Positions 31,047 through 49,886 of a DNA stretch of 64,000 bases are shown piece after piece. Each line of letters begins with the position of its first letter. Within the stretch, counting starts at the first letter, position 1. This DNA is from Candidatus Eiseniibacteriota bacterium (GTDB lineage Bacteria > Eisenbacteria > RBG-16-71-46 > CAZAMP01): NCBI GenBank assembly GCA_965224245.1, contig CBDCYW010000010.1:9617-73616 (forward strand). Direction: 5' to 3'. Made by a program: the position numbers and the translations under genes. Under the pieces are notes generated by a model, which made no database searches, had not been told where the DNA came from, and saw nothing but the letters and a program-made list of their open reading frames with translations.

Positions 31047-32295
31047 TGGAGTTGACCCGCTTCCGTGGACGGTTTTCAACTAGGGATCGCCTCCCGGCTC
31101 TCCCGTTCGAAGCGTGACGGTGAGCGATACCCGAGCGCCGAGTGTCGACGATGTCGATTGTACCACCCCTCGATGAACTGGAAGAGCTCGCGGCGCGCAT
31201 CGGTCCGGTTGCGGAAGGTCGTCCGCTCCAGGAGCTCACACTCCAGCGTGGCAAAGAAGCTCTCACACATGGCGTTGTCGTAGCAGTCCCCGACCGATCC
31301 CATCGACGGCCGAACGCCGGCCTCGCGGCACCGCCGCCCGAAGGCGTAGGACGTGTACTGACACCCCTGATCGGAGTGATGGATCACGTTCTCTGGCCGC
31401 CGCCGGTGAAGCGCCATTTCGAGCGCCTCGAGCACGAGTTCGGTGCGGAGATGGTTAGCCATCGCCCAGCCCACGATCCGGCGACTCCAGGCGTCGAGAA
31501 CCACGGCCAGGAACAGGAAGCCGGCCCACGTGGGGATGTACGTGATGTCCGCCACCCAGAGCTCGTCCGGTCCGGTCGCCTCGAACCTGCGCTGCACCAG
31601 ATCGAGCGATGGCGACCCGTCGCCGCGCACCGTCGTCCGACGTCGTGCCCGCCGGCTCACGCCTCGCAGGCCCTTCACCAGCATCAGTCGACGGATGCGC
31701 TTGCGGCCCACGGCACGACCATTGTCGGTGAGCTCGGCATGGATGCGGGGAACGCCGTAGGTTCCTTTCGACATCGTGTGAACGGCCTCGATCTCCGCCA
31801 GGAGTTCTTGATCTTCGAGCGACCGACGACTCGGCGACCGCTTCTTCCACGCGTAGTACCCGCTGGTGGAGACTTCCAGCACCCGACACATCGTGGCCAC
31901 CGCATGATCGGCCCGGTTCGCCTTCACGAACGTGAACGCTTCGACGGGTTCGACTCGGTCTCCCGAGCGAACCAGGCCGCGGCTTTTTTTAGGATCTCTC
32001 GCTCTTCGCGAAGCTCACGGTTCTCGCGGCGCAAGCGAGAGAGCTCTTCGCGCTCCTCGGACGTCAGGCCGTCGTGGCGACGACCCTCGTCGAGGTCGGC
32101 CTGCTTGGCCCAGTTCCGGATGGCCGCCGCGGAGGGCTCATACTCCTCCGCCAGCGACTCGGGACTCCGCCCCGATCGGACGAGTGCGACCATCTGCTCG
32201 CGGAACTCTGGCGGGTACGATCGACGGGATCTTGGCATCGGGACCTCCTGGCCACATTGTAGTGGTTCGGTGTCCACGAAACCGGGTCAACTCCA
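31047..32295 (-). mobile_element. IS3-family element C, a different IS from A/B (orfA 31924-32238, orfB 31076-31927)
   Basis: TIR TGGAGTTGACCCG; WVADITY, HSDQG, DNAMCESFF; A7G slippery run at about 31983-31990; no target duplication. Confidence 0.95.
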
Positions 32296-34279
32296 GACGG
32301 TGCATGATCCTGTTCTGAGGACACTTCTCAACTCGTGGGGGGTTCGGGCCTTCCAAGTGATCTGCCCGGAATGGCGAGGAATCGACGAATCCGACATGTT
32401 CGATATTCAAGGTCGACCAATACTCGAGCCCCTCAAGGACTTCGAGAATGTCTATCTTCTCTACTTCGACGCTTCTCACACCGTAGACGAGGTAGTCGCC
32501 GATCTACGAACCCGGGACGACTATGTGATCTTCGCGCATCCGAACTACCGCGCTCGCGATACTGGGTGCCCGACAATCCCGGTCTCGATTGGGGAAACAC
32601 TGTACCATCAAACGGCAACACACACTGGATCCTGGGGCATGAGCAACCCAGGCCTGTTCAGCGAGATTGTGGGCGCCGATTCGGTTCAAGCGCTCCTGGA
32701 CACGGATATCAATCTGCAAGAGGCATGGAGTATCTACAACACAGCCACCAAGAAGGTCGCGGTACTGGATCGTGGCATTGACATGTGTCATGAGGACCTT
32801 CCTGTGGACGCCGTTCTCTCGAAGTGCTTCAGCGGCAACTCCTGCTCGACCGACGAGACGGACCCTCAACGAGCCCATGGAACAGCAGTAGCGGGCATCA
32901 TCGCTGCGATTGCAAACAACGGAGTGGGTGTTGCTGGCGTCCTCGGTCACCCGTCATCAGACGATGACCTCATTGTCTCGCTTCAGCTCAGGTCGGCGGA
33001 CGGTTCAGGACAGACGGCTCATGCGGCAACCGCGATCAGCTACGCTGTTGGCACGGGTGTGATCCCTGTAACGAACATCAGCATGACTTTCGCCGGGGTC
33101 CACGTTGACGCACTCAAGCTAGCAATGAAAAACGCGTTTCTCTCTGGAATGACTTTCGCGGTTTCCGGGGGGAACAGTTCGAGCGATGTGTCTCCGCAAG
33201 AGTGGGGGCGGTTTGGCATCGGAACGACCGGGATCAATACTGATGGGAGTGATCCAGGCTGGCGCGAGGGGCCCTGGATCGATGTGACTGCTCCGGGGCC
33301 CGCGGGAGCACCGTTGGGCGTTCAGCAGGGCGTGTACACCACTGCATGGGTCTCGTTCAACCAAGACTGCAAGCGCTATGGGTGGTTTCACGCCACCTCG
33401 TCCGCAGCTCCACACGTCGCCGGAATGGCGGCGCTCATACTGTCCCACGTTCCGATTGCAACGAACGAGGATCTCTTGGAGGTGATTACTCGAACTGCCA
33501 GGGACCTCGGGCCAACGGGATATGACGAAACCTGGGGTCACGGCCTAGCTCGACTCGACAACGCTCTCTGCTTTGTGACGGAGCGAACGCTGGTCCATGG
33601 CGACGTGTCTGGGGCATACGACCAGCTGACGTTCGTTGAAGATCGCACCCAGACGTTTCTCAACCTGAAGGAGAGTTGGGGGGGAGAAGGCGACTACTGG
33701 GTGGATGTGTATAAGGCGACAAAGTCAGTTGGCTTTCCTAGCAACGTTGAGGATTGCCCAATCAATACTACCCAGGTTTGGGCGCGAGGTCGTCAATGTT
33801 CGGGCTGGCGAAACGAGTCTACGATCGACGTGGCCCTCGACACGACGTGGGGGGGAGTTGTGAATGAAACGATCACTCCCTTTGGCTGCGACATTTCGAC
33901 ATACTTCTATGAGGTGTTCGCGGACGAGAACGCATCCAGTTCCCTGGGGTGGTTCCCCTACGATCCCGATGATGGGTCGTCTCCTCCCCTGAGTTGGGGC
34001 TACACGTACCTCGTGCTGCCTTCCTGTCCGCAACGGATCGGAGGGAACGCGATCGAGAACCTTCAGGCTCCTACTGTCACAACGATCGTGCAAGTCTATG
34101 ACGTAGCTGGCCGCCGAGTCCGCGAGTGGGACATGGAGGGCCCAACGTCCGCAAGTTCCATCGAGTGGGATGGGCGGCTAGACACCGGTCGCCTGGCACC
34201 GACTGGTGTATACTTCGTGCGAGCGCGGAACGCCGTAGGTGCAGCAGCAATGAGTCAGCGCGTGCTCGTGGTTCGATGA
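32296..34279 (+). pseudogene. S8 protease with FlgD-like C-terminal domain, N-terminus and signal peptide lost at IS3 copy C
   Basis: Triad motifs VAVLDRG, HGTAVAG, ATSSAAPHVAG; VYDVAGRRVR...GVYFVR; no native start right of the IS. Confidence 0.8.
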
Positions 34280-35973
34280 TCCTGGACTTCGCGAGGCCGT
34301 CGGGGATGCTAAGGATGTGTCAACTGAGACGTATGGTCTTCTGCTTGGGCTGCCTCTGTCCTGTCTCGACTGGGATCGCAGGTGTGTCGGACACCACGTG
34401 GTTTGGTGGATCGGACCCCAACACGGGCATTGCCGTACAAGGCGGCATCTGGGACTTCGAGGACTGCACGACACAAGGTTGGTCCAGCGTCGATCGAAGC
34501 GACGAGGGGCTCTTCGTGACGCACGTCACACCCGACTCGAACGCCGTGCATGGAGATGGTGACGTGACCGCCATCAATTCCTCTGGATCAATCTGGTTCG
34601 GTGCTCACGCAGACCGCGCAGAGGAAGAGTGTTGGCCAGGCGGTCAGGGCTACGACAACGCCTGGGTACAGGTCGTGCGCAAGACGTTCTCATACGGCGG
34701 CAGCGGAGACGTCACGATCGAGTTCGACTACTTCGCCGACAGCTCGGCGGGGTTCGACTTCACGTACGTCTACGTCGCGACTGATGACGTGACCATCGGT
34801 CCACTCAACCCGGGGGCGTGGGGCCCGGGGTATTCAGGTTCGGTTGGGTCGCCGGAGAGCCCAGCGCACGCTGTACTGGTGGCAAGCGAAGTTGACCTGG
34901 CGACAGTCGTGGACTCGTTCGACGTGGTGTTTCAGTTCGAGGCCAACGAGTCTGAGTCGGATGGCTGGGACGCGCTTGGGACCACGATAGACACGATTGG
35001 CGGGTTCGGTCTCGACAACGTAGGGGTCGTCGGCAACTCGCTGGACGACTTCAGCGACTTCGAACCCGGCGCGATTGGAGGCGCTGAGCACGATGGCTGG
35101 CGCCTTTATGAGGCACCCCCCATTGGCAGTTTCGGAGACGTCGCTACGCTGGAGGACGTCGACACGAACCAGGAGGTGCCGGAGAGCTGCCCGGTCGTGG
35201 GCTGCGTGCTCCTCGCTTCGGATGCGCTCGGGGGTGGGGACCCCCATCCGTACTTGCAGCACGAAACTCTTCGGTCGAATGCCGTCCCTGCTGTGGAGAT
35301 GATGGTCGACGCGGTCGTGCTCGAGTTCGATGCATGGCTGAACTGGCCCGACGGGATGGGTATCTTCTTCTATCTCGGCGTCGAGTACTACCCGTGGACT
35401 TGCCCGGAGAGCGGCGTCGTTGGCTGGTCCCCGATACCGACTCTGAGTGCCTCAGGCGTGGCTGCGCCGGCGATCTGCGCCAGCGATGCAGTCGTGGATG
35501 TGACCGGAGACTTGCCGCCGATCGCGCTCGTGGACTCGCTCCGGATCGGGATCATCATGCAGAGATCGTGTGATCCGTTTTCGCCAAGTTGTGCTCGGGA
35601 CGCATTCAGTAACGCCCCGTCGCCATTCTTCGACAATCTTCGCGTTGGGTTCGTCCGATCGAGCGTTGGCGTTCCGGACCATTCATGGCCAGGGCCGCGT
35701 CCATACGAAGTAGTCCCGTCGCACAATCCGATCAATACCGGGGTACTGTGCACGTTCTTCCTGCCGAACGCTGAGTCGGTGCAATTGTCAGTGTATGACG
35801 TCTCGGGAAGACTGGTGCGCCTCTTGCGCGACGAGGATCTTCCGAGGGGTGAACACTCCACTGGCTGGAACGCAACCGATAGCGCGGAACGCCGGGTGGC
35901 TCCGGGAACGTACTTCCTTCGTCTGAAGACGCCCCACGCGTCGCACACTTCGCGCGTGATTGTGGCCCGTTGA
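34276..35973 (+). CDS. Secreted acidic protein with FlgD-Ig-like C-terminal domain
   Basis: Hydrophobic N-terminus, WDFE...QGW, VYDVSGRLVR...GTYFLRL; start uncertain (34276 or 34315). Confidence 0.72.
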   Translation: MILDFARPSGMLRMCQLRRMVFCLGCLCPVSTGIAGVSDTTWFGGSDPNTGIAVQGGIWDFEDCTTQGWSSVDRSDEGLFVTHVTPDSNAVHGDGDVTAINSSGSIWFGAHADRAEEECWPGGQGYDNAWVQVVRKTFSYGGSGDVTIEFDYFADSSAGFDFTYVYVATDDVTIGPLNPGAWGPGYSGSVGSPESPAHAVLVASEVDLATVVDSFDVVFQFEANESESDGWDALGTTIDTIGGFGLDNVGVVGNSLDDFSDFEPGAIGGAEHDGWRLYEAPPIGSFGDVATLEDVDTNQEVPESCPVVGCVLLASDALGGGDPHPYLQHETLRSNAVPAVEMMVDAVVLEFDAWLNWPDGMGIFFYLGVEYYPWTCPESGVVGWSPIPTLSASGVAAPAICASDAVVDVTGDLPPIALVDSLRIGIIMQRSCDPFSPSCARDAFSNAPSPFFDNLRVGFVRSSVGVPDHSWPGPRPYEVVPSHNPINTGVLCTFFLPNAESVQLSVYDVSGRLVRLLRDEDLPRGEHSTGWNATDSAERRVAPGTYFLRLKTPHASHTSRVIVAR

Positions 35974-35990
35974 TTCTGATCGAACGACAA

Positions 35991-36012
35991 AACCCGGCGC
36001 AACCGCACCGGG
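35991..36012 (-). repeat. Conserved hairpin, copy 3 (terminator-like)
   Basis: AACCCGGCGCAACCGCACCGGG on +; stem CCCGGTGC/GCGCCGGG followed by TTTT on -. Confidence 0.8.
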
Positions 36013-36038
36013 CAAGCAGAACCGTCTGGGGCTGACGG

Positions 36039-36285
36039 CTAGCTCTTGAGCACCGCCCTCAACCGGTTCTGCAACGACCCCTGCTTGTTCCCGACCTCAG
36101 CCCTCGGCCCGATGTGCTTCTCGCAGTACTGCGCGGCCGATTTCCCGATCGACACCTTCAGCTTCTCGGTCGGGATCACCTCCTCGGTCTCCGGCCGGCC
36201 CTTGACGGTGACCCTGAGCCCCTTCGCGGTCTTGACGACGTCGAAGCTGACGCGCTCTGAGACGTGGCGCGGCGACCTCTGACCA
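36039..36285 (-). pseudogene. Orphan 3' fragment 3 of the gene at 38726-39328
   Basis: VSERVSF...KGRPETEE...GNKQGSLQNRLRAVL; 40/74 residues identical to the full gene by manual alignment. Confidence 0.8.
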
Positions 36286-36289
36286 CGTA

Positions 36290-37273
36290 TCACGAAAGCT
36301 CGAACTCTCGAGCCAGCGCCGGGTTCGCCTTCTGCCAATCGGCGAAGAACTCCTCTAGCTCCAGTGCTTCGACGTACCGGCGAAGAAACTCGGGGACGAT
36401 CTTGCCAAGCCTGGCTTCCTCGATGTCACGGATTCGGTACTGCGGGATCTTCAGTCGCCGCGAGAGGGTCCGCACGTCGAGACCGAGCTCTTCGCGGCGG
36501 CGGGTGATCTGTGTCGAGAGCGGCATGAAGCGAATGGTGCGCTCCGCATGCTGGGGCGATGGCGTGGCCGCGGGAAACGAGTCGGCGATCAGCCTTCGAA
36601 GCTCCTTGGCGAGCATGGCGACCACTTCATCGGAGACGATTTCACCAGGATCGATGCGCGCGGGAAGCTCGGGCTGATTGGCCGGACCACGCTCTGTCGG
36701 GGACGACGGACGAGGATGCGGCAACCCTTCGCCCTCCACGACGCGGGTGACGGGCCCATCGCAGCGCACGCAGCGCCCTTCGAGAACGAGGTCGCCGCCC
36801 ATCATACGTCCGGACTCCAGCGCCATCGACGTTCCGGTCAGGCAGGACGAGCACCAGGCGTTGTTGAGAAGGCGAACGCGAAGCCCAGGATCGATGGCGT
36901 TCCAGATGGGACGTGCCGTCGTAGTGAAGCGAGGTCCGTCAACACCAGGCGAGCTGACAGGTTTCGTCTGACTCAGGTCCCAGGGAGTTCCTCGCCAGCC
37001 GTGGATCGTGCCCTCGTCGCCGCAATCGGGGCATCGCCAGGCGATCTCGTCGTGCCTCGACGAAATGACCGCTTCGATGATGCCATTGCAGCGGCGACGG
37101 CGGGGACGGCGGCGGCATTGAGGTGGAATGCTGTGTCGGCCGGCGAGGACGGCACTGACGAAGGCGACGATCGAGCCCAGATGGTCGCGCAGCGCCCGGC
37201 CGGCACGACGCGGCGGGATGTGTCCATTCTCGTCGAGAAAGTGGGACATGTCCGTCACGGTGGGGGTCGGCAT
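36290..37273 (-). CDS. Hypothetical protein with two Cys-rich putative Zn-binding modules and a C-terminal Xre-like HTH
   Basis: CRRRP...WRCPDC; WCSSC...CVRC; RREELGLDVRTLSRRLKIPQYRIRDIE. Confidence 0.6.
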   Translation of the reverse strand: MPTPTVTDMSHFLDENGHIPPRRAGRALRDHLGSIVAFVSAVLAGRHSIPPQCRRRPRRRRCNGIIEAVISSRHDEIAWRCPDCGDEGTIHGWRGTPWDLSQTKPVSSPGVDGPRFTTTARPIWNAIDPGLRVRLLNNAWCSSCLTGTSMALESGRMMGGDLVLEGRCVRCDGPVTRVVEGEGLPHPRPSSPTERGPANQPELPARIDPGEIVSDEVVAMLAKELRRLIADSFPAATPSPQHAERTIRFMPLSTQITRRREELGLDVRTLSRRLKIPQYRIRDIEEARLGKIVPEFLRRYVEALELEEFFADWQKANPALAREFELS

Positions 37274-37346
37274 GGCCACGTCCCTCCCCGAGTTGCTAGA
37301 CGCCGCTTGCCTCGACTGATGAGACAGGAACTTGTCACAACGAGAC

Positions 37347-37368
37347 AACCCGGCGCAACCGCACCGGG
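37347..37368 (-). repeat. Conserved hairpin, copy 2
   Basis: AACCCGGCGCAACCGCACCGGG. Confidence 0.8.
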
Positions 37369-37395
37369 TGAGCGAGGCGCCTGTGGCCGGAGCGG

Positions 37396-37660
37396 CTACC
37401 CCTTCATCACCGCCCTCAACCGGTTCGCCAGCGACCCCGCCTTGTTTCCGACGACCTCGCGCGGACCAAGGTGCCGATCGGTGTAGTCCAACGCCGCCTT
37501 GTTGATCGAGACCTTGATCAGCTCGGGGTTCAGCACCTCCTCGGTGTCCGGTCGACCCTTCACCGCGACCTTCACGCTCTTGCCGCTCTTCTCGACGAGG
37601 AACGTCACGCGCTCGGCGACGTACGTTGCGCGGCCGCCGGTGAACTCGCAGGGAACGCCG
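37396..37660 (-). pseudogene. Orphan 3' fragment 2 of the gene at 38726-39328
   Basis: GVPCEFTGGR...LANRLRAVMKG; 78/87 residues identical; similarity stops sharply at 37660. Confidence 0.88.
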
Positions 37661-37789
37661 ACGCAGCGCGGCATCGAGCTGGATGAGAAGGCGAGGGGGC
37701 TGCTGAAGTACTACCATCGGTGGGCAGCGTGACGTCGTTCGGGTTTTCGGACAGCACGGGATCGACTCACGCTACTTTCTCGCTCTGGT

Positions 37790-38540
37790 CTACCGAACGC
37801 CGCCAACGTGAGCGGGGAGCGTCTCGACATCATGCCGGTACACCGATTTCAGCGTTGCCCAGGAGTGATTCGTGACTGGCACCGATCCCGCTCCCCGAAG
37901 CTCGACCGCCAGATTCGCCGGCTCCTCGACACCGATCCACGGCGCGTCGTGAGCGGGGGTCCAATCGGCCGGGCCGAAGTAGTTCGAGCGGAGCACCGCG
38001 GGTAGATCAGGTCCGTCCGGCGCATCGGTGGATGTGGACCAGTACCACTCCGGTGGATAGCAGAATTGTGCTTGGATTGAGATCCAGTAGCGCTCACGCT
38101 CGACTAGTGATCCCGGATGGTCGTCCGCCGGGATCTCCACGCAGTACGACCATGGCGCACCGCCGCTCTCCTCGAAACCGGTGAAGAGCCCGTCGTAGAG
38201 CGTGTCGCCCGGAAGGCCGTCGGCGTCCTGGTAGATGCGGATGCGAAACGCATCGGGAGAGCTCGGCTCGAACAGCCCGAAGGTCCCCCACCACCGTACG
38301 GCGAGAAGGTCGCTTGTGTGTTGGAAGTCGTCGGCGACCTCCACGTGAACCCCATCGCAGGGTGGAACGGGCTCTTCCATCGCCAGCACGCCACCGGTGG
38401 GGTGAGGAGGCTGAGCAAACAGCACGGACCCCGGACACGCAACGGCGCCAAGAAGGAAGAGTGGCGAGATCAGGATCACGATGATGCCCTTCGTATCGAC
38501 GGTCCGCTGTCGAAGCCGTGACGTTGTCCAGGGTAGCACA
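37790..38540 (-). CDS. Secreted protein with SWATLKSVYR motif near the C-terminus; start uncertain
   Basis: Hydrophobic IIVILISPLFLLGAVAC, VADDF, VRWWG, YWISIQ, PVTNHSWATLKSVYR. Confidence 0.6.
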
Positions 38541-38674
38541 TCGCGGATCTGCGAGCACCGACGCTGCGCACCCCAAGACCGTGGACGAACTGTCGTCAAG
38601 ACGGCGACTCGTAGCCAGCAACGAAGTGAGCATGTGCGCCTCCCGTCGTGCTTGAGAGCGAACCGCAACGAGAG

Positions 38675-38696
38675 AACCCGGCACAACCGCACCGGG
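38675..38696 (-). repeat. Conserved hairpin, copy 1
   Basis: AACCCGGCACAACCGCACCGGG, about 30 bp after the stop of the full gene. Confidence 0.8.
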
Positions 38697-38725
38697 TGAA
38701 TAAAGCGTCTCTGTGGCCGGCGCCG

Positions 38726-39328
38726 CTAGCCTCTCAGCACCGCCCGCAACCGATTCGCCAACGACCCCGACTTGTTTCCGATGACCTCGCGCGGCCCCAG
38801 ATGCCGATCGGTGTAGTCCAGCGCCGCCTTGTTGATCGAGACCTTGATCAAGTCGGGGTTCAGCGTCTCCTCGGTATCCGGCCTTCCCTTGATCGCGACC
38901 TTCACGCTCTTGCCGCTCTTCTCGACGAGGAACGTCACGCGCTCGGTGACGTCGGTGGCGCGGCCGCCGGTGAACTCGCAGGGGACGCCGGCTTTCTTGC
39001 AGGCGTCGCGGTAGGGGCCGAGGACGTCGCGGAAGTGGGCCTTGGCGTCGTTGATGAGGGTGTTGGCCTCGCCGCGCAGCGTGGCGGCCTCGGCCTGCAT
39101 CTCCCGGACGTTGCGCTCGGCGTCGACGACGGCGGTGCGGAGCGCGTCGAGGTCGGGGGCGGCCGTGTCGCGCGTCGTCGTGGGCGGTGTCGGTGTTTCG
39201 GTGGCTGGCGCGGCCTCGGGGGCCTTCTTGGCCCGTGCCTTCGACGTGCGGCCTGACGTTGCGCCGGTGCCGCCCTTGGTCGCCTTCGCCGCCGCCGTCT
39301 TCTTCGGAGCCTTCTTCTTCGTCGCCAT
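38726..39328 (-). CDS. Protein with Lys/Ala-rich (histone H1-like) N-terminus, coiled coil and conserved C-terminal domain
   Basis: GGAGG SD, MATKKKAPKKTAAAKATK, helical middle region, C-terminal domain repeated twice downstream. Confidence 0.75.
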   Translation of the reverse strand: MATKKKAPKKTAAAKATKGGTGATSGRTSKARAKKAPEAAPATETPTPPTTTRDTAAPDLDALRTAVVDAERNVREMQAEAATLRGEANTLINDAKAHFRDVLGPYRDACKKAGVPCEFTGGRATDVTERVTFLVEKSGKSVKVAIKGRPDTEETLNPDLIKVSINKAALDYTDRHLGPREVIGNKSGSLANRLRAVLRG

Positions 39329-39383
39329 CTCGTCCTCCTCGGGCTGTGTGGCAGGCGCGGCGGAATGCGCGCCAGTGCGACAC

Positions 39384-39415
39384 ATGCACGCTCGAGCCGG
39401 GCGAGGTCATCAAGT
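39384..39415 (-). promoter_or_regulatory. Promoter-like motif shared with 46336-46366
   Basis: Minus strand ACTTGATG...CGAGCGTGCAT upstream of the Lys/Ala-rich gene. Confidence 0.55.
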
Positions 39416-39747
39416 CATTTCAGTACAATAAGTTAGCGTGATCTGCGGGGCGGAGGAGCGAACATGCGGGGGAGCGTGGAGGGCACAGGAAGCCCCCAGG
39501 GCTTCGGGGTCAGCCCGGGCCGCTGGGGGCCGAGTGAGACTCCCCTGCTGCGAAGGAGAGAGACGTCGCAGCGCAGCTTGGGCACTGGGGAGCCCGGTCA
39601 TCGTATCGGTTTTCGGTGCTGGTTGCCTGAGCGAGAGGATGAGGCTGCCGTGTCCTGGGAGCAGGCCAGCACAGGACTTGTTGTCGTTCCGCTTCCACGG
39701 ACGGACGACGTATACTTGTCGACCCTACCGAACGTCGGAGGACCGGG

Positions 39748-40146
39748 ATGTCGAGTCGTATGCTTCTCGTGTCGGCGGCAATCCTCGCTGGTTGTTCATC
39801 CGACAAAGAAGTGACCTCTCCGGAAGACACGCCGAACGACCCTCCAAATCACCCACCCATCCTAGAAGCGCAGGCCGATACGACCGGCGCCGTTGGGGAC
39901 ACCCTTCGACTCGTCGCGCGGGCCACGGACCCCGACGAACATGTGCTGACATACTCGTTGGTCGTCGAGATTTCCCTGGATGAGCTACACGAGGGATACG
40001 AGGCCAACGTTAGCCTGAACCGCGGCACAGGCGCCTTCTGGTTCGTCCCGTCCAACGAAGATCGACCATCTCGTGCCTTCGAGTTTCATGTGGACGACGG
40101 ACACGGCGGAACGGACTGGGACGGGTTCACCGTGTCCACACCGTAG
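39748..40146 (+). CDS. Lipoprotein with Ig/cadherin-like domain
   Basis: Lipobox LAGC; NHPPIL...ATDPD...LTYSL...VDDGHGG. Confidence 0.75.
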   Translation: MSSRMLLVSAAILAGCSSDKEVTSPEDTPNDPPNHPPILEAQADTTGAVGDTLRLVARATDPDEHVLTYSLVVEISLDELHEGYEANVSLNRGTGAFWFVPSNEDRPSRAFEFHVDDGHGGTDWDGFTVSTP

Positions 40147-40247
40147 GCTGCGCGGCAGAAGTCGATGGCCGAGACAGCCCACCCAAGTTTCGAGTTGATA
40201 TCCAACGTCGGTACGAGCCGTCATACCCAGGAAGGAGGACCCGCACC

Positions 40248-40838
40248 ATGCCGTACCGTGCCCCCGAGACCATGACCACCGCCGAGCAGCGCCGCCTCCT
40301 CGACGTCAGCGCCGAGAGCCCGAGGCCCCGCGATCACGTGATGATCTCGATGGCGCTCGGCACTGGGCTCCGCCTCGGCGAGTTGCTCGGCCTGGACGTC
40401 GGCGACGTGAGTCCCGACGGCGTCCGCGTCCGCACGCGCGTCAAGCTGCGTGTCGAAACGACGAAGGGCGCGCGAAAGGGCGAGGTGTTTCTGCCGGATC
40501 GGGTCGTCGAGAAGCTGACGCGGTTCCTGGCGTGGAAGTCCATGATGGGGGAGCCGCTCGATGCCGACGCGCCGCTGTTCATCTCGTCGTGGGGGAGGCG
40601 GCTGTCGGCGAGGCGGACGCAGATGATGTTTCGGCAATGGCAGGCGCGCGCGGGCTTCGACAGGTTCTACTGCTTTCACTCGACCCGGCATGCCGCCATC
40701 ACGAACGTCTACCGAGCGAGCCGCGATCTCTTCTTGGCGCAAAGGTTCGCACGACACGCGTCGCCTCTCACCACCATCATCTACACCTACGTGTCGGATG
40801 AGGAGATGGCGGAGAGGGTGAGGGGGTTGGCGTGCTGA
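40248..40838 (+). CDS. Minimal tyrosine recombinase (catalytic domain only, 196 aa)
   Basis: GLRLGEL (R), TKG (K), HSTRH (HxxR), RHAS...IY (H, Y); GGAGG SD. Confidence 0.92.
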   Translation: MPYRAPETMTTAEQRRLLDVSAESPRPRDHVMISMALGTGLRLGELLGLDVGDVSPDGVRVRTRVKLRVETTKGARKGEVFLPDRVVEKLTRFLAWKSMMGEPLDADAPLFISSWGRRLSARRTQMMFRQWQARAGFDRFYCFHSTRHAAITNVYRASRDLFLAQRFARHASPLTTIIYTYVSDEEMAERVRGLAC

Positions 40839-41078
40839 GTATCGGGAAGGACCGCTAGTCTTCGCCTCCGCCGTAGAGACCTCAGCGAGACCTGATGCCA
40901 TAGAACGACTCTTCGCGTTTGCGCGCGATTTGTCCTTCATTCGGCGGCCGTGGCTTCTTGCGTCTCAGTCCCGTTGTCGTGTACGGAGGGGCTCCAGCAT
41001 CTGTCGGCCCAGTATCCTCAAAAGCGTCACGGATTAGGTTACACTTCTCAGATAGACCACCCATCAAGGAACAGTCCG

Positions 41079-43460
41079 ATGAGGACCTCGTCACCGCGTG
41101 CAGCACGCATTCGCGCATTGCAACTCGCGACCCCAGTCACCCTGATCGCGATGCTCGCTCATGCCGGCGATGACGGTCGATGGTCGGACGCCTTCATCGC
41201 CCCGGGGACCGACAACGGCATCGCGCGGTGCATGGTCCGGTACAACGGAGACCTGGTAGTCGGCGGATGGCACCTACAAGCCGACATCGGTCCCGATCTG
41301 GTGCTGCGTTTTCGAGATGGCAACTGGGAGCGGATGGGGGAAGGGATCGGGTACTACTCCGGATATGTGACCCCACCGAGTGTCTTCGATCTCGAGATCT
41401 TCCAGGGCGATCTCTACGCCAGCGGCCGCCTCGACTCGGCGGGCGTGCATCCGTCCTTCGGCATCGCGCGCTGGGACGGTAGTCAGTGGTGGCCACTCCC
41501 CGGAGATGAGTTTCGAGCCATCTACGCCATGGAGGAGTTCGAGGACCAGCTCGTCGTGACGGGTGAGATGTATCAGGTCGACGGCCTCGCTGTCGAACGT
41601 GTGGCTCGCTGGTCGGGCACCGAGTGGTCTCCCATGGGATCGCTCCTGGACTACGGTGCCTCGGACCTCATCGTCTACCAGGGTGAGCTCTACGCGGCCG
41701 GCCACTTTTGCTCCGACGAGTGGTGCGAAGACTCCCAGATCCTGAAGAGATGGTCCGGGACCGCGTGGGACTCGGTGGCCGCGGGTGACGGATGGGTCAC
41801 TCGCATGACGGAGTTTCAGGGCGAGCTCGTCCTTGCCGGTGACATCCACGAGGTCGAAGGAGCGCCCGCCCAGAACATCGTCGCCTGGAATGGAACCTCA
41901 TGGCGCACGCTCGGTGGCGGGCTCTCGCGCTCCGATGGTGACCACCCGGACGCGATGATGGGTCTCGCCAAGTTTGCGGGCGACCTCATCGTGTCCGGTG
42001 ATTTCGATCTCGCCGGCGGCGTGCCGGTCAGTGGGATCGCGCGATGGGACGGAGCCCAATGGACGCCCATCGAGCCCGGGATCGAGTCGGAGTGGGATCG
42101 GGCGGACTTCCTGCTGGCCGAACCGGACACGCTGTACGTGGGAGGCTCCTTCGGGGCTATCGGCGGTGTTGGAGCGTGGAACGTGGCCCGCTGGGATGGT
42201 CAGACGTTTCGTCCCTGGCGCACCGGCGAGGCCGTGAGCGGCAGCGTGGAGGCCCTGACTGTGTGGGGCGGCCACGTCGTGGCCGGCGGCTGGTTCGACG
42301 GGGCCGGAAGCGTCCCGTCGGGTGCCGTGATGATGCTGGACGGGGAGTCCTGGCGCGCGTTCGGGCACGACCAGCTCGTCGCCGTTCATGACTTCGAGTA
42401 TCACGAGGGCCAGCTCGTGGCCGCCCAGGGGACCGGGTTCTTCGGGGTGACTCAGCATGTGATGGTGTTCGACGGCGCGGACTGGGTCCCGCTCGGTGAT
42501 GGTGAGGGTTTCGGCGACGGAGAACCGCTCGTCCTGCTGTCGCTCGATGGCGTGCTCTACGCGGGCGGGTACTTCCAGACGGTCGATGACGTTCCGTTGC
42601 CATACCTGGCCCGATGGATCGATGGGTCGTGGAGTGGGTTCGGGGCGCCGTCGGACCCCGTGTTCGCCTTCGCCGGTGACACCGCGAACCTCTACGTGGG
42701 TGGCGAGTTCACGAGCGTGGACGGGATCCCCGCGAACAACGTGGCCCGGTGGAACGGCTCGTCGTGGTCATCGATGGGAGCCGGGACTCCGGGGCCTGTC
42801 TTCGCGCTGGCTATGCACGACGGTGACCTCCTAGCCGGCGGACGTGGGACCGGTGTCGGGTTTCTCCTACGCTGGAACGGTCTGGCCTGGGTGGACGTGG
42901 GCGCCAGCCCGGATTGGCATGTCTGTGAGATGGTTCCGCTGGGAACCGACCTGTACGTGGGTGGGGGGTTCACGACCATCGGTGGGATCACGGCGAACCA
43001 CATCGCCCGCTGGGATGGATCCGTCTGGAGCACGTTCGGCAGCGGACTCAATGGCGCGGCCTGTGCGCTTCTTCCGCGCGGCGATCTCTACGTCGGTGGC
43101 AACTTCACCATGGCGGGTGGCAAGGTATCGCTGAGGTTCGCGCGCTGGGATGCGGACATCGTCGCCACGCCCGACGTTCCGGTGCGAGGCGGATTGCGTG
43201 TGGACGCCGCGAGTCCGATGCCCGTCGATGGGGGCATCGTCATCCGAAGCGATCCACCGGGTGTGGTCTCCATGGCGGTCTTCGACGTGGCGGGCCGGCA
43301 GCTCGGCTCGACGACCGCGAACGCCCGGCCAGAGGGTACCATCGTTTCGCTACGCTCACTTCTCCCGGCGACGCGAGTCAGCGGCCCCTGCGTCATCTTC
43401 CTTCGGGCCGCATCATCGCTCGCGGAGGTCGTGACACGACTCGTGGTGTGGCCCGAGTGA
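41079..43460 (+). CDS. Secreted beta-propeller repeat protein with degenerate FlgD-like C-terminal domain
   Basis: Signal peptide, many ARWDGxxW repeats, VFDVAGRQL. Confidence 0.8.
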   Translation: MRTSSPRAARIRALQLATPVTLIAMLAHAGDDGRWSDAFIAPGTDNGIARCMVRYNGDLVVGGWHLQADIGPDLVLRFRDGNWERMGEGIGYYSGYVTPPSVFDLEIFQGDLYASGRLDSAGVHPSFGIARWDGSQWWPLPGDEFRAIYAMEEFEDQLVVTGEMYQVDGLAVERVARWSGTEWSPMGSLLDYGASDLIVYQGELYAAGHFCSDEWCEDSQILKRWSGTAWDSVAAGDGWVTRMTEFQGELVLAGDIHEVEGAPAQNIVAWNGTSWRTLGGGLSRSDGDHPDAMMGLAKFAGDLIVSGDFDLAGGVPVSGIARWDGAQWTPIEPGIESEWDRADFLLAEPDTLYVGGSFGAIGGVGAWNVARWDGQTFRPWRTGEAVSGSVEALTVWGGHVVAGGWFDGAGSVPSGAVMMLDGESWRAFGHDQLVAVHDFEYHEGQLVAAQGTGFFGVTQHVMVFDGADWVPLGDGEGFGDGEPLVLLSLDGVLYAGGYFQTVDDVPLPYLARWIDGSWSGFGAPSDPVFAFAGDTANLYVGGEFTSVDGIPANNVARWNGSSWSSMGAGTPGPVFALAMHDGDLLAGGRGTGVGFLLRWNGLAWVDVGASPDWHVCEMVPLGTDLYVGGGFTTIGGITANHIARWDGSVWSTFGSGLNGAACALLPRGDLYVGGNFTMAGGKVSLRFARWDADIVATPDVPVRGGLRVDAASPMPVDGGIVIRSDPPGVVSMAVFDVAGRQLGSTTANARPEGTIVSLRSLLPATRVSGPCVIFLRAASSLAEVVTRLVVWPE

Positions 43461-43481
43461 GTCACGTAAGTGACGGTAGGG

Positions 43482-43811
43482 CTAGCCGAGCGCACCTCGC
43501 TGTTCATCCCACCGAACCGACCGCAACGCCTTCCGAAGCCGCCGCTCCCCAACCACGACCGTCCCATCGAGCAGCGTCACCTGGATGTCCGGCGCCAGCC
43601 CCAGCAGCGCCGTGATCTGCGACACCCTCGCCCTCGACACGCCGGCGACCCGGGCGACCTCGGCGTAGGACTCGACGCGCCCGTCTCGCACCATCTCGTC
43701 GAGCACGAGCGCCAGCGCCATGAGCCGGGCTGATCGGGGCACGGTGGGGACCTCGGGCTCAGGGGAAGGGGCAGGTTCGGGGCGAAACGTGGCGCGGATG
43801 GTCACGCTCAT
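43482..43811 (-). CDS. Small HTH-like protein typical of recombinase/DUF2924 modules
   Basis: YAEVARVAGVSRARVSQITALLGLAPDIQ...WDEQR. Confidence 0.7.
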   Translation of the reverse strand: MSVTIRATFRPEPAPSPEPEVPTVPRSARLMALALVLDEMVRDGRVESYAEVARVAGVSRARVSQITALLGLAPDIQVTLLDGTVVVGERRLRKALRSVRWDEQRGALG

Positions 43812-45337
43812 GGGTGACCTCCGGGCAGAAGCGCGGCCGCTCCCTCACGAAACGTGATCGCCACCTCGCCCGACGCCCCGTCGTAGTCGACACGCTCGAC
43901 GAGCAACCCCAACGCCTCGGCCTTCTCACGCGCCGTCAGCCGCGCCCATAGCGCGCCGAACTCCGACAGGGCGTCCGAGACGCCCGTGCGGTTGATCGTG
44001 CGGCCACGCACGGCTGTGAGCGTTTCCTGGGCCACACGGCGGCGACGTTCGGTGGTCTTGGCGCGTCGCGTAATCTCGGTGATGCGATCGTCGTCGCCAT
44101 CCTCACGAGCGCGGTTGAGTTCTCCTCGGAGCTGCTTGATCTCGGCGTCGAATAGGCGGAGATCGTTGCCGAGCTCCTTGACGCGGGCCTTCGCCTGGGC
44201 CTTCGCCGAGGCGACGGTGGCGGCGATCAGCTTCGGATCGTTGCCGATGCCCCGGATCTGGTCGATGACGAACGCTTCGATCTCCCCGGCGGCGACCGGC
44301 GCGGTGGGGCAGACCTGGGCGCCCTCCTTCTGGCGACGGGTGCAGGCGTAGTACTTGTAGCGGCGAGAGCCCCTCGTCGTCGCCGTGCGCGTCATCGCGG
44401 CGTCGCACGCCGCGCAGCGGAGCACGCCCGCCAGCATCGCCGTGCGCTTCGTCTTCGGGGCCGAGCCGTTGGTGACGCGGTTCCCGCGAAGGCACGCCTG
44501 GGCTGCCTCGAATGTGTCAACGTCGACGATCGCCTCGTGCTCGGCCTCGACCACCTCGTCGCCGCAGCGGATGCGACCCACGTAGAGCACGTTCGTCAGG
44601 AGCTTCTGGAGGGTCGACTTACCGAAGGCCGTGTCGCCGTGAGTCTTGCCCGCGGCCGACGTCCACCGCTTCGTCGTCCAGCCCCGGCGGCGCGCCTCGG
44701 CGACGGTGGCCGACAGCGATCGCGTCTCCAGGTAGGCGCGGAAGATCATGCGGACCCGTTCCGCCTCGCCCTCGTTGACCACGAGCCGGCCACCACCTTC
44801 GGCCACGTCGTACCCGAGCACCGGCACGCCTCCGGTCCACTGGCCTCGACGCCGCGCTGCCCGCATCTTGTCCCGCGTCCGCTCCCGGATCATCTCTCGC
44901 TCGAACTCCGCGAAGCTCATCAGCATGTTCAGCGTCAGCCGGCCCATCGACGACGACGTGTCGAGCTGTTGAGTGACCGACACGAGGCCCACCTCGTGCT
45001 TCTCCAGCGTCTGCATGATCCGCGCGAAGTCCAGCAGCGAGCGGGAGAGTCGGTCGACCTTGTACACGACGATCCGGTCGATCAGGCCCGCCTCGACGTC
45101 GCGCAGCAGCCGCTGGAACGCTGGACGCTCGGTTGTGCCACCTGAGAAACCGCCGTCGTCGTAGCGATCGGGAAGTGGCACCCACCCGAGACCAGCCTGT
45201 GACCGGACGAATGACTCAGCCGACTCGCGCTGGGCGTCGAGGGTGTTGAACGCCTGATCCAGGCCCTCGTCGGTCGACTTCCGGGTGTAGATGGCGCAGC
45301 GCACCTCGGCGGTTGACGTGGTCGACAGGACGGCCAT
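43808..45337 (-). CDS. Large serine recombinase (resolvase, recombinase and Zn-ribbon domains)
   Basis: CAIYTRKS, YKVDRLSRS, FERE, GGVPVLGY, CAAC...YYAC. Confidence 0.95.
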   Translation of the reverse strand: MAVLSTTSTAEVRCAIYTRKSTDEGLDQAFNTLDAQRESAESFVRSQAGLGWVPLPDRYDDGGFSGGTTERPAFQRLLRDVEAGLIDRIVVYKVDRLSRSLLDFARIMQTLEKHEVGLVSVTQQLDTSSSMGRLTLNMLMSFAEFEREMIRERTRDKMRAARRRGQWTGGVPVLGYDVAEGGGRLVVNEGEAERVRMIFRAYLETRSLSATVAEARRRGWTTKRWTSAAGKTHGDTAFGKSTLQKLLTNVLYVGRIRCGDEVVEAEHEAIVDVDTFEAAQACLRGNRVTNGSAPKTKRTAMLAGVLRCAACDAAMTRTATTRGSRRYKYYACTRRQKEGAQVCPTAPVAAGEIEAFVIDQIRGIGNDPKLIAATVASAKAQAKARVKELGNDLRLFDAEIKQLRGELNRAREDGDDDRITEITRRAKTTERRRRVAQETLTAVRGRTINRTGVSDALSEFGALWARLTAREKAEALGLLVERVDYDGASGEVAITFREGAAALLPGGHP

Positions 45338-45339
45338 CG

Positions 45340-46476: not shown

Positions 46477-46539
46477 GATGATCCCGCCTCTCTCTTTTCA
46501 GCGGACCCATGAAAGGCCCGTGCAAGGCAGCTCAGTCAT

Positions 46540-47985: not shown

Positions 47986-48117
47986 ACGCTTCAATAACCT
48001 ACTCGACGACGAACCTACCGAATACCGGCGGTCGTGGTGAGCACCGACAGCTCCTACGACCGCCTTCCCCCCCCATGCCGTCGCCGCTCGCCATGCCCCC
48101 CGGCTTCAGGGGGAAAG

Positions 48118-49862: not shown

Positions 49863-49886
49863 CGCGGACCGAAAGGATGGATCGCC

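Follow-up and report, generated by a model that had tools for sequence, protein, structure and literature searches.

Anatomy of the locus

The window, i.e. the whole stretch of 64,000 nucleotides from a Candidatus Eiseniibacteriota genome analysed here, contains a full-length anchor gene for a 200-aa protein, HLP (an ORF at 38726-39328), together with two copies of its 3' end that have no start, a hairpin behind the gene and each of the copies, and one cargo gene between successive copies, all of them on the minus strand. The HLP stop codon is followed after 29 nt by hairpin 1 with a U/C-rich tail, a terminator-like unit end detected by motif match (38668-38697). Then come cargo gene 1 (37790-38692), remnant 1 (37396-37674, a 5'-truncated HLP 3' end covering aa 113-200, type A allele), hairpin 2 and its tail (37341-37370; motif, fold and unit-end comparison), cargo gene 2 (36290-37273), remnant 2 (36039-36285, likewise 5'-truncated, about aa 124-200, type B allele) and hairpin 3 with its tail (35984-36013; motif match, fold and terminator scan). 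The array is bordered by a plus-strand gene for a 615-aa protein with a FlgD_ig-type secretion tail (34126-35973, Pfam).

A DNA repeat finder placed three 280-nt copies in co-linear order, 1357 and 1330 nt apart, and in tblastn searches with the full HLP protein copy 1 (37396-37660) was 88.6% identical over 88 aa and copy 2 (36039-36260) 54.1% over 74 aa. These values agree with the 78/87 and 40/74 identities given in an earlier note on this DNA, and its description of one full gene plus two co-oriented, colinear C-terminal-only copies, with one cargo gene between successive copies, was borne out by these searches and by the two cargo ORFs.

Cargo gene 1 encodes a DUF7901 protein (Pfam PF25470, E 1.4e-7) with a signal-peptide-like segment; because the start of the maximal ORF overlaps hairpin 1, the true start is probably further downstream. 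It has about 15 paralogues elsewhere in the genome (28-35% identity) and no PADLOC match. Cargo gene 2 encodes a 327-aa protein with a C-terminal HTH_25 domain (Pfam, E 2e-5) and a Cys-rich middle, a second copy of which is found at the end of contig C23 (C23:2-472, 99% aa identity over 157 aa).

On the other side of HLP are a conserved upstream region common to the module copies (39329-39440, from an alignment of eight intergenic regions), a Big_9/cadherin-like lipoprotein gene (39748-40146, plus strand, Pfam) and a gene for a catalytic-domain-only tyrosine recombinase of 196 aa (40248-40838, plus strand; PF00589, E 1.4e-22), in which PF00589 spans residues 8-185 and no other domain was found. 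The start-to-start distance of 919 nt matches the 0.9 kb stated previously; the corresponding intergenic regions of seven other modules measure 334-433 nt, and the lipoprotein gene is present in the window copy only, with no other copy in the genome. Further away is a minus-strand segment of element backbone (43482-45921; a 109-aa ORF, a large serine recombinase and DUF2924, Pfam), shared at 80-87% with C1:6.106 Mb and contigs C9, C10, C18, C20, C22 and C23, and after it phage-like replication, methylase, ParB-like and terminase genes (49428-57223, Pfam). IS elements are abundant in the region.

HLP is an uncharacterised family: it has no match in Pfam, PHROGs, NCBIfam or PADLOC, and each of its at least 326 homologues is named hypothetical. 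The protein consists of a disordered K/A/P-rich tail, one long helix and a small alpha/beta C-terminal domain, the best-conserved part of the family (AlphaFold model, pLDDT about 90 at residues 60-113 and 133-199). In prophage-like elements of other phyla, HLP forms the end of the backbone, ahead of the defence cargo, and the variable cargo behind it includes Type I R-M, BREX-like, Dnd and other systems.

Remnants, unit ends and recurrence of the arrays

Sequence comparison shows the remnants to be 3' ends displaced from other HLP alleles and not products of decay. The 92-aa frame of remnant 1 is intact, and an ATG stands at the junction; its aa identity is 88.6% with the full gene and 94% with the C1 and C3 alleles, and its pN/pS against full genes is 0.07-0.18, compared with 0.10-0.22 between full genes. 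Remnant 2 (pN/pS 0.31-0.39) is 54% identical to the neighbouring full gene and 88-89% (aa) or 91-92% (nt) to the C18 and C23 alleles. The divergence that rises with distance from the full gene is not decay: the 3' ends of other full-length alleles in this genome match copy 2 at 87-92% identity. Types A and B are distinct, and they are the only two 3' types in this genome.

The expected motif of about 30 bp behind each HLP copy was indeed recovered: AACCCGGCRCAACCGCACCGGG occurs three times in the window (0.00 expected, 100 shuffles), each copy about 30 nt past a stop codon. Hairpin 1 has a 9-bp stem and a GGUU loop; among the three window hairpins, a simple terminator scan was passed by hairpin 3 only. 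In its behaviour the hairpin corresponds to a terminator of HLP. Type A and type B ends in this genome carry one and the same 20-nt hairpin and tail, although their 26-30 nt between stop and hairpin cannot be aligned with each other. Similarity between units ends 10-15 nt after the stem, where at least seven different sequences follow, and two units consist of a hairpin without an HLP remnant.

The same layout was found in two further arrays of this genome (contigs C3 and C23). A second Eisenbacteria genome, G011, has five full HLP genes and many co-oriented remnants, with about 10 units on its contig C12 and no recombinase adjacent to its arrays. The search across MAGs proposed in the earlier note also showed that orphan 3' copies recur: of 45 loci from metagenomes or MAGs whose downstream sequence reaches 1.5 kb or more, 12 contain partial HLP copies, all 16 of them co-oriented and 13 of the 16 ending at the C-terminus.

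The left ends of the remnants are variable. A common start at the GVPCEFTGGR segment holds for both window fragments (aa 113 and about aa 124, at or just past it) but not outside the window. In this genome remnants start at aa 113, 118, 124, 149, 155 and 174 and within the 3'UTR, and in G011 between nt 389 and 558, counted over the 549-nt gene and its 3'UTR, a spread that speaks against the fixed crossover point suggested before.

Such variable starts would also fit static debris, i.e. tandem elements or modules that were later trimmed by deletion, with neither mobile units nor ongoing exchange. The IS-rich surroundings, the frameshifts or stops in some remnants (C23b and C3 in this genome, two in G011) and the lack of any excision joint in public contigs point in the same direction. 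On the other hand, each interval holds one intact, co-oriented gene with little spare DNA (cargo stop to next remnant 5-135 nt in G011 and 2 nt in C22), and 14 of 20 G011 units have their own promoter copy. Furthermore, no recombinase or HLP 5'-half remnants lie between the units of the window, the frame of remnant 1 is intact with low pN/pS, and the sample contains one chromosomal site in two variants. Thus, we consider static debris improbable.

A right end fixed at the end of the terminator tail combined with variable 5' truncation would also be expected if units arose from RNA, with cDNA synthesis beginning at the 3' end of the terminated HLP transcript, running a variable distance into HLP and then switching to a cargo mRNA; in G011, cargo-specific sequence often starts near a predicted transcription start. 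However, RVT_1 was not found in G011 (97% complete), the two instances in this genome are not beside an array, the G011 units contain a promoter that is not transcribed with HLP, and the shared part exceeds the transcript end. An RNA-mediated origin therefore seems scarcely credible.

Exchange of HLP 3' ends and the possible role of the recombinase

HLP 3' ends have really been swapped, as is seen from two full-length mosaic HLP genes whose 5' and 3' parts meet at aa 105-128: C22 combines a group-III 5' part with a type A 3' part, and C23a a group-II 5' part with a type B 3' part. The switches at nt 310-385 coincide with the best-conserved nucleotide stretch, where the window remnants begin. 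Mosaics broken at the domain boundary, along with the intact remnant 1, would be compatible with remnants that store alternative C-terminal domains for gene conversion, as in pilS or vls. Such silent cassettes are nevertheless very improbable here: the C-terminal domain is conserved and not variable, only two 3' types exist in this genome, many remnants are just 20-50 aa long or broken (in G011, those of most arrays are too short for a domain), and the remnants are separated by intact unrelated genes with their own promoters.

Comparison of related loci gave further correspondences. A remnant and its flank on G011:C19 match the full HLP 3' end and flank of contig L044, which implies that this remnant and its downstream DNA were once a full gene with its downstream DNA. 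Between C11 (5652-9533) and C3 (5673-9554), the distal remnant, the hairpin and 3.9 kb in all, including the distal flank gene, remnant 2 and hairpin 3, are shared at 98.6% (blastn); in C3 a shorter remnant (aa 155-200) and a different cargo precede the distal flank gene, and over the 110 nt before the stop the two remnants do not differ. For both pairs, divergence is higher in the 5' part of the remnant than in its 3' part and flank, as a crossover inside the unit would predict. The L019/L044 pair turns identical just after the terminator loop. C18 and C1a, which are 100% identical over 1.8 kb, diverge from within the recombinase gene, so breakpoints are not limited to one site. Together with the array anatomy, the recurring arrays, allelic remnants, mosaic genes and remnant-to-full-gene match observed here bear out the proposal of the earlier note that cargo-bringing units which replace the HLP 3' end are stacked serially.

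We tentatively favour, at a probability of about 45%, the view that cargo accretes by recombination within the shared segment of HLP 3' end and terminator; at the same odds, the locus would form the cargo edge of a phage-like family of integrative elements present in multiple copies. A conserved module of about 1.7 kb, with the minimal tyrosine recombinase and HLP in divergent orientation, would face the variable region, and new cargo would enter via a single crossover within the HLP 3' end and terminator common to all units. Incoming DNA would bring its own partial HLP 3' end, so that the resident gene gains a new 3' end and the old one, with the old cargo, is shifted one step outward. Repeated rounds would yield the order HLP, terminator, cargo, remnant, terminator, cargo, remnant, terminator, flank. 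Remnants and hairpins would be by-products that may also insulate the units (by a terminator and, in G011, a promoter) and offer homology for later exchange. We assign the crossover to general or phage-encoded homologous recombination acting on the best-conserved stretches, with occasional illegitimate joins, and not to the neighbouring recombinase, which would have its role elsewhere, in resolution, mobilisation or movement of the module. We infer a circular or segmental intermediate, the stacking direction and the enzyme. If so, the stacked, cut-off HLP tails would be a readable record of elements collecting and swapping cargo such as anti-phage defence genes. The accretion view is also favoured by arrays of this build that have no recombinase beside HLP, by the variable cargo behind HLP in other phyla, and by an equivalent footprint behind the recombinase gene itself: C22 has the order recombinase, GNAT, recombinase remnant, and recombinase remnants are also present in G021, G012 and G034.

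Several observations argue against accretion of this kind. Homologous recombination leaves the invariant hairpin and the sharp, repeated joins unexplained, shared segments of 50-330 nt at 60-90% identity are poor RecA-type substrates, and random joins would not be expected to give cargo units as tight as those in G011 and C22. Neither an intermediate nor a circle nor a presence/absence pair of cassette size was seen. In addition, recombinase and HLP are adjacent and divergent in all eight complete modules of this genome.

This last point would be accounted for if the recombinase joined units at the invariant hairpin or a core in the HLP 3' unit, as in integrons or CIMEs; the cassette would then be cargo, HLP remnant and hairpin, with remnant length a frozen internal feature and not a crossover point. 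The residues R42, K73, H144, R147, H170 and Y179 are invariant in 35 homologues, i.e. all catalytic residues are conserved, and the family of 194-198 aa proteins is large (2313 proteins at E <= 1e-10). Invariance of the hairpin across allele types, sharp right ends and hairpin-only units in this genome also favour such a mechanism, as do the drifting terminator stems (with compensatory changes) of G011, which lacks an adjacent recombinase, and the L019/L044 switch just past the terminator loop. The three best recombinase matches in G011 are 6-13 kb from the HLP arrays, and recombinase homologues of other genomes bear remnant arrays of their own 3' end.

However, arrays built alike exist without an adjacent recombinase: it was found neither upstream of HLP in any of 37 loci from metagenomes or MAGs whose upstream sequence reaches 1.5 kb or more (tblastn) nor among the 38 upstream ORFs of 10 array-bearing loci (Pfam). 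The linkage proposed for testing earlier thus holds within this genome and was not found in these other loci. A 9-bp stem with a 4-nt loop is far below an attC or canonical core site, and the recombinase has no core-binding domain. The 110 nt of C11/C3 identity upstream of the stop is not predicted by crossover strictly at the hairpin, and swap breakpoints fall within both the recombinase gene and HLP. With up to three mismatches allowed, the hairpin sequence was not found in other genomes, either at HLP loci or at 20 loci surrounding homologues of the recombinase. Joining of units by this recombinase is therefore possible but rather doubtful.

Comparison with known systems

Shufflon-like action, also raised earlier, is not supported, since every copy is a direct repeat and none is inverted. 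Membership in the integron family fails on the tested defining features: the recombinase scored 43.9 bits against integron-integrase models (cut-off 265 bits; residues 3-96 only), the hairpin is small and the recombinase linkage is not general. Like integrons, this locus has a recombinase divergent from mostly single-gene, co-oriented units that each end in a hairpin-forming element, the newest unit would be nearest the platform, and the cargo of relatives includes defence genes. Unlike integrons, HLP arrays have a short hairpin, protein-gene pieces in their units and, in most G011 units, an own promoter.

Streptococcal integrase-less CIMEs and microCIMEs accrete in tandem at the 3' ends of fda, rpsI and rpmG (PMC7563491). 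They resemble HLP arrays in their recombinase-less cargo units of about 1 kb or more, their gene-less micro-units and their direct-order stacks behind a protein gene, split by attachment-region repeats. The CIME repeats are att sites of a known ICE/IME integrase within a composite island, and the units are decayed ICEs/IMEs. The HLP-array repeats, in contrast, are 5'-truncated gene ends of very different lengths, and the sole nearby recombinase is upstream of the target, lacks a DNA-binding domain and was not found in that position in related arrays.

Tycheposon/tRNA-island arrays (10.1101/2020.12.28.424599) are alike in that successive integrations at a gene 3' end displace older elements outward and partial target copies are scattered through the island. 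They use a tRNA target and their own tyrosine recombinase, whereas HLP arrays consist of single-gene units and have as their target a protein gene that the mobile element itself carries.

At orphan rhs-CT and cdiA-CT loci (PMC3967940), too, co-oriented fragments without a start lie behind a main gene, and each retains a stretch of the conserved region that varies in extent; experiments demonstrated that main gene and orphan undergo homologous recombination, and an orphan of one strain may be part of the main gene in another. There, the variable payload forms an in-frame fusion with the conserved part and has an immunity gene as its partner; in HLP arrays the gene 3' end is the conserved part, and a terminator separates it from the payload, which is a gene of its own.

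Cargo sites of temperate elements share variable, often defensive and rapidly swapped cargo at a fixed spot beside backbone genes. The excerpts on such sites describe no ordered stacks split by repeated 3' ends of a flanking core gene. In one account (PMC13586616), small intergenic pseudogene pieces are regarded as likely recombination remnants and the exchange mechanism is left open.

Finally, the SGI1 proteins MpsA and MpsB (PMC6414798) comprise a protein with a tyrosine-recombinase fold and a separately encoded small partner, next to a GC-rich site that contains inverted repeats. A relaxase function has been proposed for MpsA, while MpsB is similar to the core-binding domain that is missing; HLP differs from MpsB in its predicted long helix and small alpha/beta domain.

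The HLP array and the element that carries it

The array in the window is anchored in the HLP gene (38726-39328, minus strand), which encodes a protein of 200 aa. With this full protein as tblastn query, two start-less copies of its 3' end were recovered, remnant 1 (88.6% identity over 88 aa) and remnant 2 (54.1% over 74 aa), and a DNA repeat finder reported a 280-nt repeat present three times, co-linear on the minus strand, with spacings of 1357 and 1330 nt. The motif AACCCGGCRCAACCGCACCGGG occurred three times in the window against 0.00 expected, every copy lying ~30 nt past a stop codon. On the coding strand it would fold into a G+C stem of 9 bp capped by a GGUU loop, with a U/C-rich tail behind it; only the distal of the three hairpin copies in the window passed a simple terminator scan. 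Each interval between HLP copies contains one ORF, coding in one case for a DUF7901 protein and in the other for a protein with a C-terminal HTH_25 domain (Pfam), and the recombinase gene (40248-40838) encodes 196 aa with the PF00589 catalytic domain alone. Thus tblastn, repeat finder, motif count and Pfam agreed with the description in the earlier note of a full gene, two 3'-only copies, a threefold motif, interval ORFs and a minimal recombinase.

Within the window, no site scored as promoter-like, no Rfam family was found at E ≤ 1 within 35800-41000 and no tRNA or tmRNA within 30000-48000. An inverted-repeat pair (38780-38800 and 39391-39411) flanks HLP, but 5.5 kb contain 20 such pairs, and this one was read as chance or as coding/promoter conservation rather than as a special element.

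The label "histone-like", previously given to HLP, had the lysine/alanine-rich tail as its sole basis; the tail is there, but neither a family nor an informative structural match could be added to it. Pfam, PHROGs, NCBIfam and PADLOC gave no family (Pfam LPD39 reached E 0.044, under the cut-off), the best PDB sequence-profile match had an E of 0.26, Foldseek against PDB returned nothing at E ≤ 1e-3, a wide VIA-align search returned coiled-coil matches only (Z ~6), and the ESM Atlas had no usable match. The structural model has a disordered K/A/P-rich tail, a long helix (60-113) and a small alpha/beta domain (133-199).

The assembly (6.94 Mb) consists of one 6.45-Mb contig with 69% G+C and 26 small contigs with 57-66% G+C, and the window lies on one of the latter (C11). 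The small contigs are diverged relatives (80-95%) of the region C1:6.096-6.122 Mb. The backbone common to these element copies includes a large serine recombinase with DUF2924 (window 43808-45921), and in the window it goes on with phage-like genes, such as AAA_24, DUF669, ERCC4, Prim-Pol, D5_N, methylase, ParB_N and terminase. The divergent recombinase/HLP pair, here called the module, is present in eight complete copies (C11, C1, C3, C10, C18, C22 and two on C23) and one decayed copy on C1. Module similarity is bounded by the recombinase stop codon on one side and by a point 10-15 nt past the hairpin on the other. The distance from recombinase start to HLP start is 334-433 nt in the seven other copies and 919 nt in the window, because a Big_9/cadherin-like gene (39748-40146, plus strand), present in the window copy alone, is inserted between the two genes. 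This implies that the inner side of the module takes cargo too.

Several other features of these elements were observed. In the modules of C22 and of C1:6.104 Mb (C1a), a 204-aa ORF without family match lies between HLP and the hairpin (locus L136, 9271-9885, minus strand; start of C22). It begins 10 nt past the HLP stop, with a GGAGG overlapping that stop, and looks translationally coupled to HLP. Insertion sequences are dense in the window (15912-17329, 22217-24421, 24433-25577, 25982-28186 and 31076-32277), comprising an IS66-type three-gene unit present twice in inverted orientation and three IS3-type (HTH_Tnp_1 and rve) units; identical copies are found on other contigs, and they are a likely cause of assembly breaks. 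At the far window end, a bacterial eRF1-like gene (baeRF family 3; 63249-63776, minus strand) adjoins a B12-binding radical SAM gene.

Exchange of HLP 3' ends and limits of the units

We read the arrays as accretion stacks. DNA carrying a partial HLP 3' end and cargo would recombine with the resident gene inside the common segment; the resident HLP would gain a new end, and the old end would be displaced together with its cargo.

Two types of HLP 3' part, A and B, exist in the window's genome, with 58-73% identity between them and 82-96% within each. Remnant 1 is of type A and matches the alleles of C1 and C3 at 91%; remnant 2 is of type B and matches those of C18 and C23 at 91-92%. The pN/pS ratio of remnant 1 against full genes was 0.07-0.18, as compared with 0.10-0.22 between full genes and 0.31-0.39 for remnant 2. 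Judging from these allele matches and ratios, the remnants are displaced 3' ends of other working HLP alleles, and the rise in divergence with distance from the full gene, seen in the earlier note, is no decay series. Some remnants outside the window carry frameshifts or stops; that the arrays as a whole are static debris is nevertheless improbable in our view.

The HLP 5' parts (aa 59-110) form three groups, which are discordant with the two 3' types. In the full gene of C22, a 5' part of the group found in C18 and C23b is joined to a type-A end; in that of C23a, one of the two C23 modules, a 5' part of the C10 group is joined to a type-B end. In sliding windows these mosaics switch at nt 310-330 and nt 345-385, within the well-conserved PYRDAC...GVPCEFTGGR stretch, where both window remnants begin. 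The mosaic full genes support the earlier proposal of 3'-end replacement; the HLP 3' end is really exchanged. A store of silent cassettes, in which the displaced ends would be kept in reserve, is a very improbable reading of the same copies.

Comparison of related loci located several junctions. C11 and C3 have remnant 2, hairpin 3 and 3.9 kb of flank in common at 98.6%; the distal remnant of C3 begins at aa 155, as compared with ~aa 124 in C11, different cargo precedes it, and its first ~90 nt are ~92% identical to C11 while the remainder is identical. In a second Eisenbacteria genome with HLP arrays (G011), a remnant on contig C19, together with the DNA downstream of it, matches a full HLP on contig L044 in its 3' end and downstream DNA, with ~90% identity in the remnant and ~100% from just past the terminator loop. 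C18 and C1a are 100% identical over 1.8 kb (flank and recombinase 3' part) and 89-96% in the recombinase 5' part and intergenic region; further on, HLP is 61-67% identical and the downstream DNA unrelated. The HTH cargo is found again behind a shorter remnant with a frameshift, at the end of C23, with a CDS identity of ~100% and ~80-85% in leader and hairpin, although this may be a contig-end artefact. These patterns fit crossovers inside the common unit and elsewhere in the module, and not at one base. In the window's assembly, C18 and C1:6.104 Mb represent two variants of one chromosomal site with different HLP alleles and unrelated downstream cargo.

A fixed crossover point, as suggested in the earlier note, was not supported by the left ends of the remnants. 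They begin at aa 113, 118, ~124, 149, 155 and 174 in the window's genome, where two further units begin merely 0-18 nt before the hairpin, at nt 389 to 558 of the 549-nt gene plus 3'UTR in G011, and 23-90 aa from the end in metagenomic loci. The right ends in the window's genome are sharp, with similarity stopping 10-15 nt past the hairpin. In G011, the common unit extends through a sigma-70-type promoter; the pattern TTGACA-N16-18-TAnnnT is present in 14 of 20 units and has just 21 occurrences on both strands of 94 kb.

Terminator stems in G011 vary between units via compensatory changes. Across the family, uninterrupted stems of at least 10 bp follow the HLP stop in 40 of 91 real sequences, as compared with 22 of 1820 shuffles; this count replaced an earlier lenient scan that did not discriminate (90/91 real vs 446/455 shuffles). 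Since the strong stem is family-wide and its sequence differs between lineages, the hairpin is first of all a predicted HLP terminator. However, a terminator role leaves unexplained why, in the window's genome, type-A and type-B ends with unalignable 3'UTRs are followed by one and the same hairpin sequence. With up to three mismatches allowed, this sequence was absent from HLP loci outside the window's genome and from the surroundings of recombinase homologues in other genomes (20 loci, 140 kb). Public reads (three runs of one sample, as Logan contigs of depth ~3-11) were also compared with window 34500-41500. The pieces break at the repeats. Four listed joints (e.g. 39393 to 40249) seem to reflect paralogous copies of the module, and none connects one hairpin with another; the comparison is uninformative on excision.

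Recurrence of the arrays and the position of the recombinase

The HLP gene is present in two of 41 genomes of the same class, counting that of the window. Within the latter, C3 carries three more HLP remnants behind its full gene and C23 a short remnant and a hairpin-only unit. G011, whose proteins are named Candidatus Eisenbacteria by NCBI, has five full HLP genes and many co-oriented remnants, with ~10 units behind the gene on its contig C12. We also collected 84 metagenomic/MAG loci with a full HLP and used the 45 with at least 1.5 kb downstream to count partial copies; gene coordinates were taken from tblastn, as picking the longest ORF failed in this high-GC DNA. At least one downstream partial copy was found in 12 of the 45, all 16 copies were co-oriented with the full gene, and 13 of them end at most 1 aa from the HLP C-terminus. 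Thus, the MAG-wide search called for earlier established that the arrays are a regular feature of a sub-lineage of the HLP family and no one-off. Three Eisenbacteria-type loci contain ORFs of 175-177 aa without family match between secretion-tailed protein genes and HLP (L017 6041-6574, L051 5440-5967, L054 7737-8270), and a tandem repeat with a period of ~117 nt lies within an 822-aa RCC1-repeat/FlgD_ig gene upstream of a G011 array (L018 2268-3069, contig C18 of G011).

The recombinase matches PF00589 at E 1.4e-22 over residues 8-185 and lacks the core-binding (SAM-like) N-terminal domain. R42, K73, H144, R147, H170 and Y179 are invariant in 35 homologues and, with catalytic-role columns assigned by eye, fit the R-K-H-R-H/W-Y catalytic set. 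The family comprises 2313 proteins at E ≤ 1e-10, with homologues of 194-198 aa; in NCBIfam the recombinase comes closest to the C-terminal halves of XerA and XerC, though far under cut-off. A single-protein query found no relatives in viral contigs. The recombinase might conceivably resemble the atypical relaxase MpsA (PMC6414798), which would be expected to nick at an adjacent oriT and to depend on a conjugative helper.

Linkage between recombinase and HLP, for which the earlier note proposed a test, held in the window's genome, where the two genes are adjacent and divergent in 8/8 complete modules, and failed elsewhere. None of 37 loci outside this genome with at least 1.5 kb upstream had the recombinase within 1 kb of HLP (tblastn), distant tyrosine recombinases being found 6-9 kb away in three of them. 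Among 38 upstream ORFs in 10 array-bearing loci Pfam recognised no recombinase, and secretion-tailed (FlgD_ig) protein genes lie upstream instead. The three best recombinase matches in G011 are 6-13 kb from HLP arrays, none of them adjacent to HLP.

Recombinase homologues with 56-60% identity are found in eight other genomes of the class that lack HLP. There, too, co-oriented remnants of the homologue's own 3' end lie behind the gene, with similarity stopping at the stop codon. One or two such remnants, some broken, were seen at L127 5152-6997, L128 4620-5510, L124, L130 and L131 (genomes G021, G034 and G012). On C22 (L135 1675-3085), a GNAT gene of 124 aa (2587-2961) lies behind a full recombinase gene, and a co-oriented recombinase remnant (aa 156-196; 2963-3085) begins 2 nt past the GNAT stop, a mirror image of the HLP array. 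The recombinase-remnant arrays imply that the footprint belongs to conserved genes bordering variable DNA and not to HLP alone.

We favour accretion by general or phage homologous recombination with occasional illegitimate joins, at a probability of roughly 45%, on three grounds: the breakpoints, which fall in the best-conserved stretches but also within the recombinase gene; the variable length of the remnants; and the existence of arrays of the same architecture without the recombinase. The complete linkage within the window's genome, together with the invariant hairpin, sharp unit ends and hairpin-only units there, speaks for a recombinase-driven process of integron-like or CIME-like kind, which we consider possible but doubtful. 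A more specific proposal, which we hold to be unlikely, is that the minimal recombinase docks single-gene cassettes, often anti-phage in relatives, at the terminator hairpin (or 3' end) of its partner gene, the partner-gene piece of each cassette serving as attachment arm; this would amount functionally to an integron built from different parts, with many copies in phage-like elements. An RNA-mediated origin of the 3' copies is scarcely credible: no reverse transcriptase was found in G011, and neither of the two in the window's genome lies beside an array.

Relation to described systems and nature of the cargo

Previously the array had been likened to integrons and shufflons. As to the integron comparison, the recombinase lies beside and divergent from the array in all eight complete modules of the window's genome but not in G011 or the 37 other loci, and in other respects the comparison fails. 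Integron-integrase models did not match (TIGR02249 43.9 bits vs cut-off 265, residues 3-96 only; NF011946 18.9 vs cut-off 435). The integron attC site is an imperfect palindrome of ~57-141 bp with paired R/L boxes, whereas the conserved element here has a 9-bp stem, a 4-nt loop and a ~10-nt tail. Unlike promoterless integron cassettes, the G011 units mostly carry the promoter pattern, and each unit begins past a terminator-like hairpin. The shufflon idea was not upheld, as all partial copies are direct, including the three copies in the window, the 16 elsewhere and all G011 remnants within each array.

The nearest described systems are CIME accretion, tycheposon/tRNA-island stacking, orphan rhs-CT modules, integrons and P2/P4 defence hotspots (see also PMC9122126). 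In the available part of one report, CIMEs and microCIMEs without integrase accrete in tandem at the 3' ends of fda, rpsI and rpmG (PMC7563491). Direct repeats of the target 3' end likewise bound the units here; the left ends vary, in contrast to a fixed CIME crossover core, although right ends are sharp and the hairpin invariant in the window's genome; no product of recombination was seen. Stacking at tRNA islands and in tycheposons (10.1101/2020.12.28.424599) and orphan rhs-CT modules (PMC3967940) are near comparisons as far as the accessible parts of these sources go; unlike polymorphic-toxin orphan modules, the remnants end at the normal HLP stop and the cargo is separate behind the hairpin. 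Prophage and satellite defence hotspots (P2/P4; PMC13586616) share with HLP loci variable cargo at a fixed place by a temperate-element backbone, represented in the window by the serine recombinase, replication genes and terminase. The portion of that source available names candidate mechanisms for loading and swapping of hotspot genes and settles on none. A non-exhaustive literature search, partly of incomplete texts, found no description of ordered single-gene stacks split by variable-length 3' ends of a backbone protein gene plus terminator and promoter.

The arrays bear on how accessory and defence genes are loaded and exchanged at the fixed hotspots of mobile elements, since past acquisitions remain legible in them as an ordered series. 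With every step a 3' end of the anchor gene is displaced and left behind, so that the sequence itself allows one to infer the order of events, the donor allele and roughly where the crossover fell. The arrays also point to the large family of 194-198-aa tyrosine recombinases; if the recombinase drives the process, integron-like gene capture would have been invented a second time, independently.

No recognisable defence genes were found in the cargo of the window, C3 or C23 arrays. The cargo of related arrays is rich in defence-type genes (Pfam), such as DUF4062 (twice), SIR2_2, TIR/SEFIR (TIR_2), HEPN_Swt1 with DUF5343, AbiJ_NTD4, DUF4238, RAMA-GIY-YIG and NYN, and PADLOC reported PDC-M34A/B, PDC-S32 and bSEFIR there at E 1e-71 to 1e-94. 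These arrays thus yield candidate defence cassettes of one gene each, every one with a promoter and terminator of its own. From these findings, the uncharacterised HLP family (at least 326 members, no Pfam domain) is a marker for cargo hotspots in several phyla. In other phyla, HLP is single-copy and found in prophage-like contexts, with endolysins, a baseplate gene, serine recombinases or primase-integrase modules nearby. It lies directly upstream of Type I R-M (L030, L048), DUF6079 and methylase (L052), DndC/D-like (L062), helicase/DUF1156 (L091) and methylase and ResIII genes (L024), and it is also present in three viral contigs.
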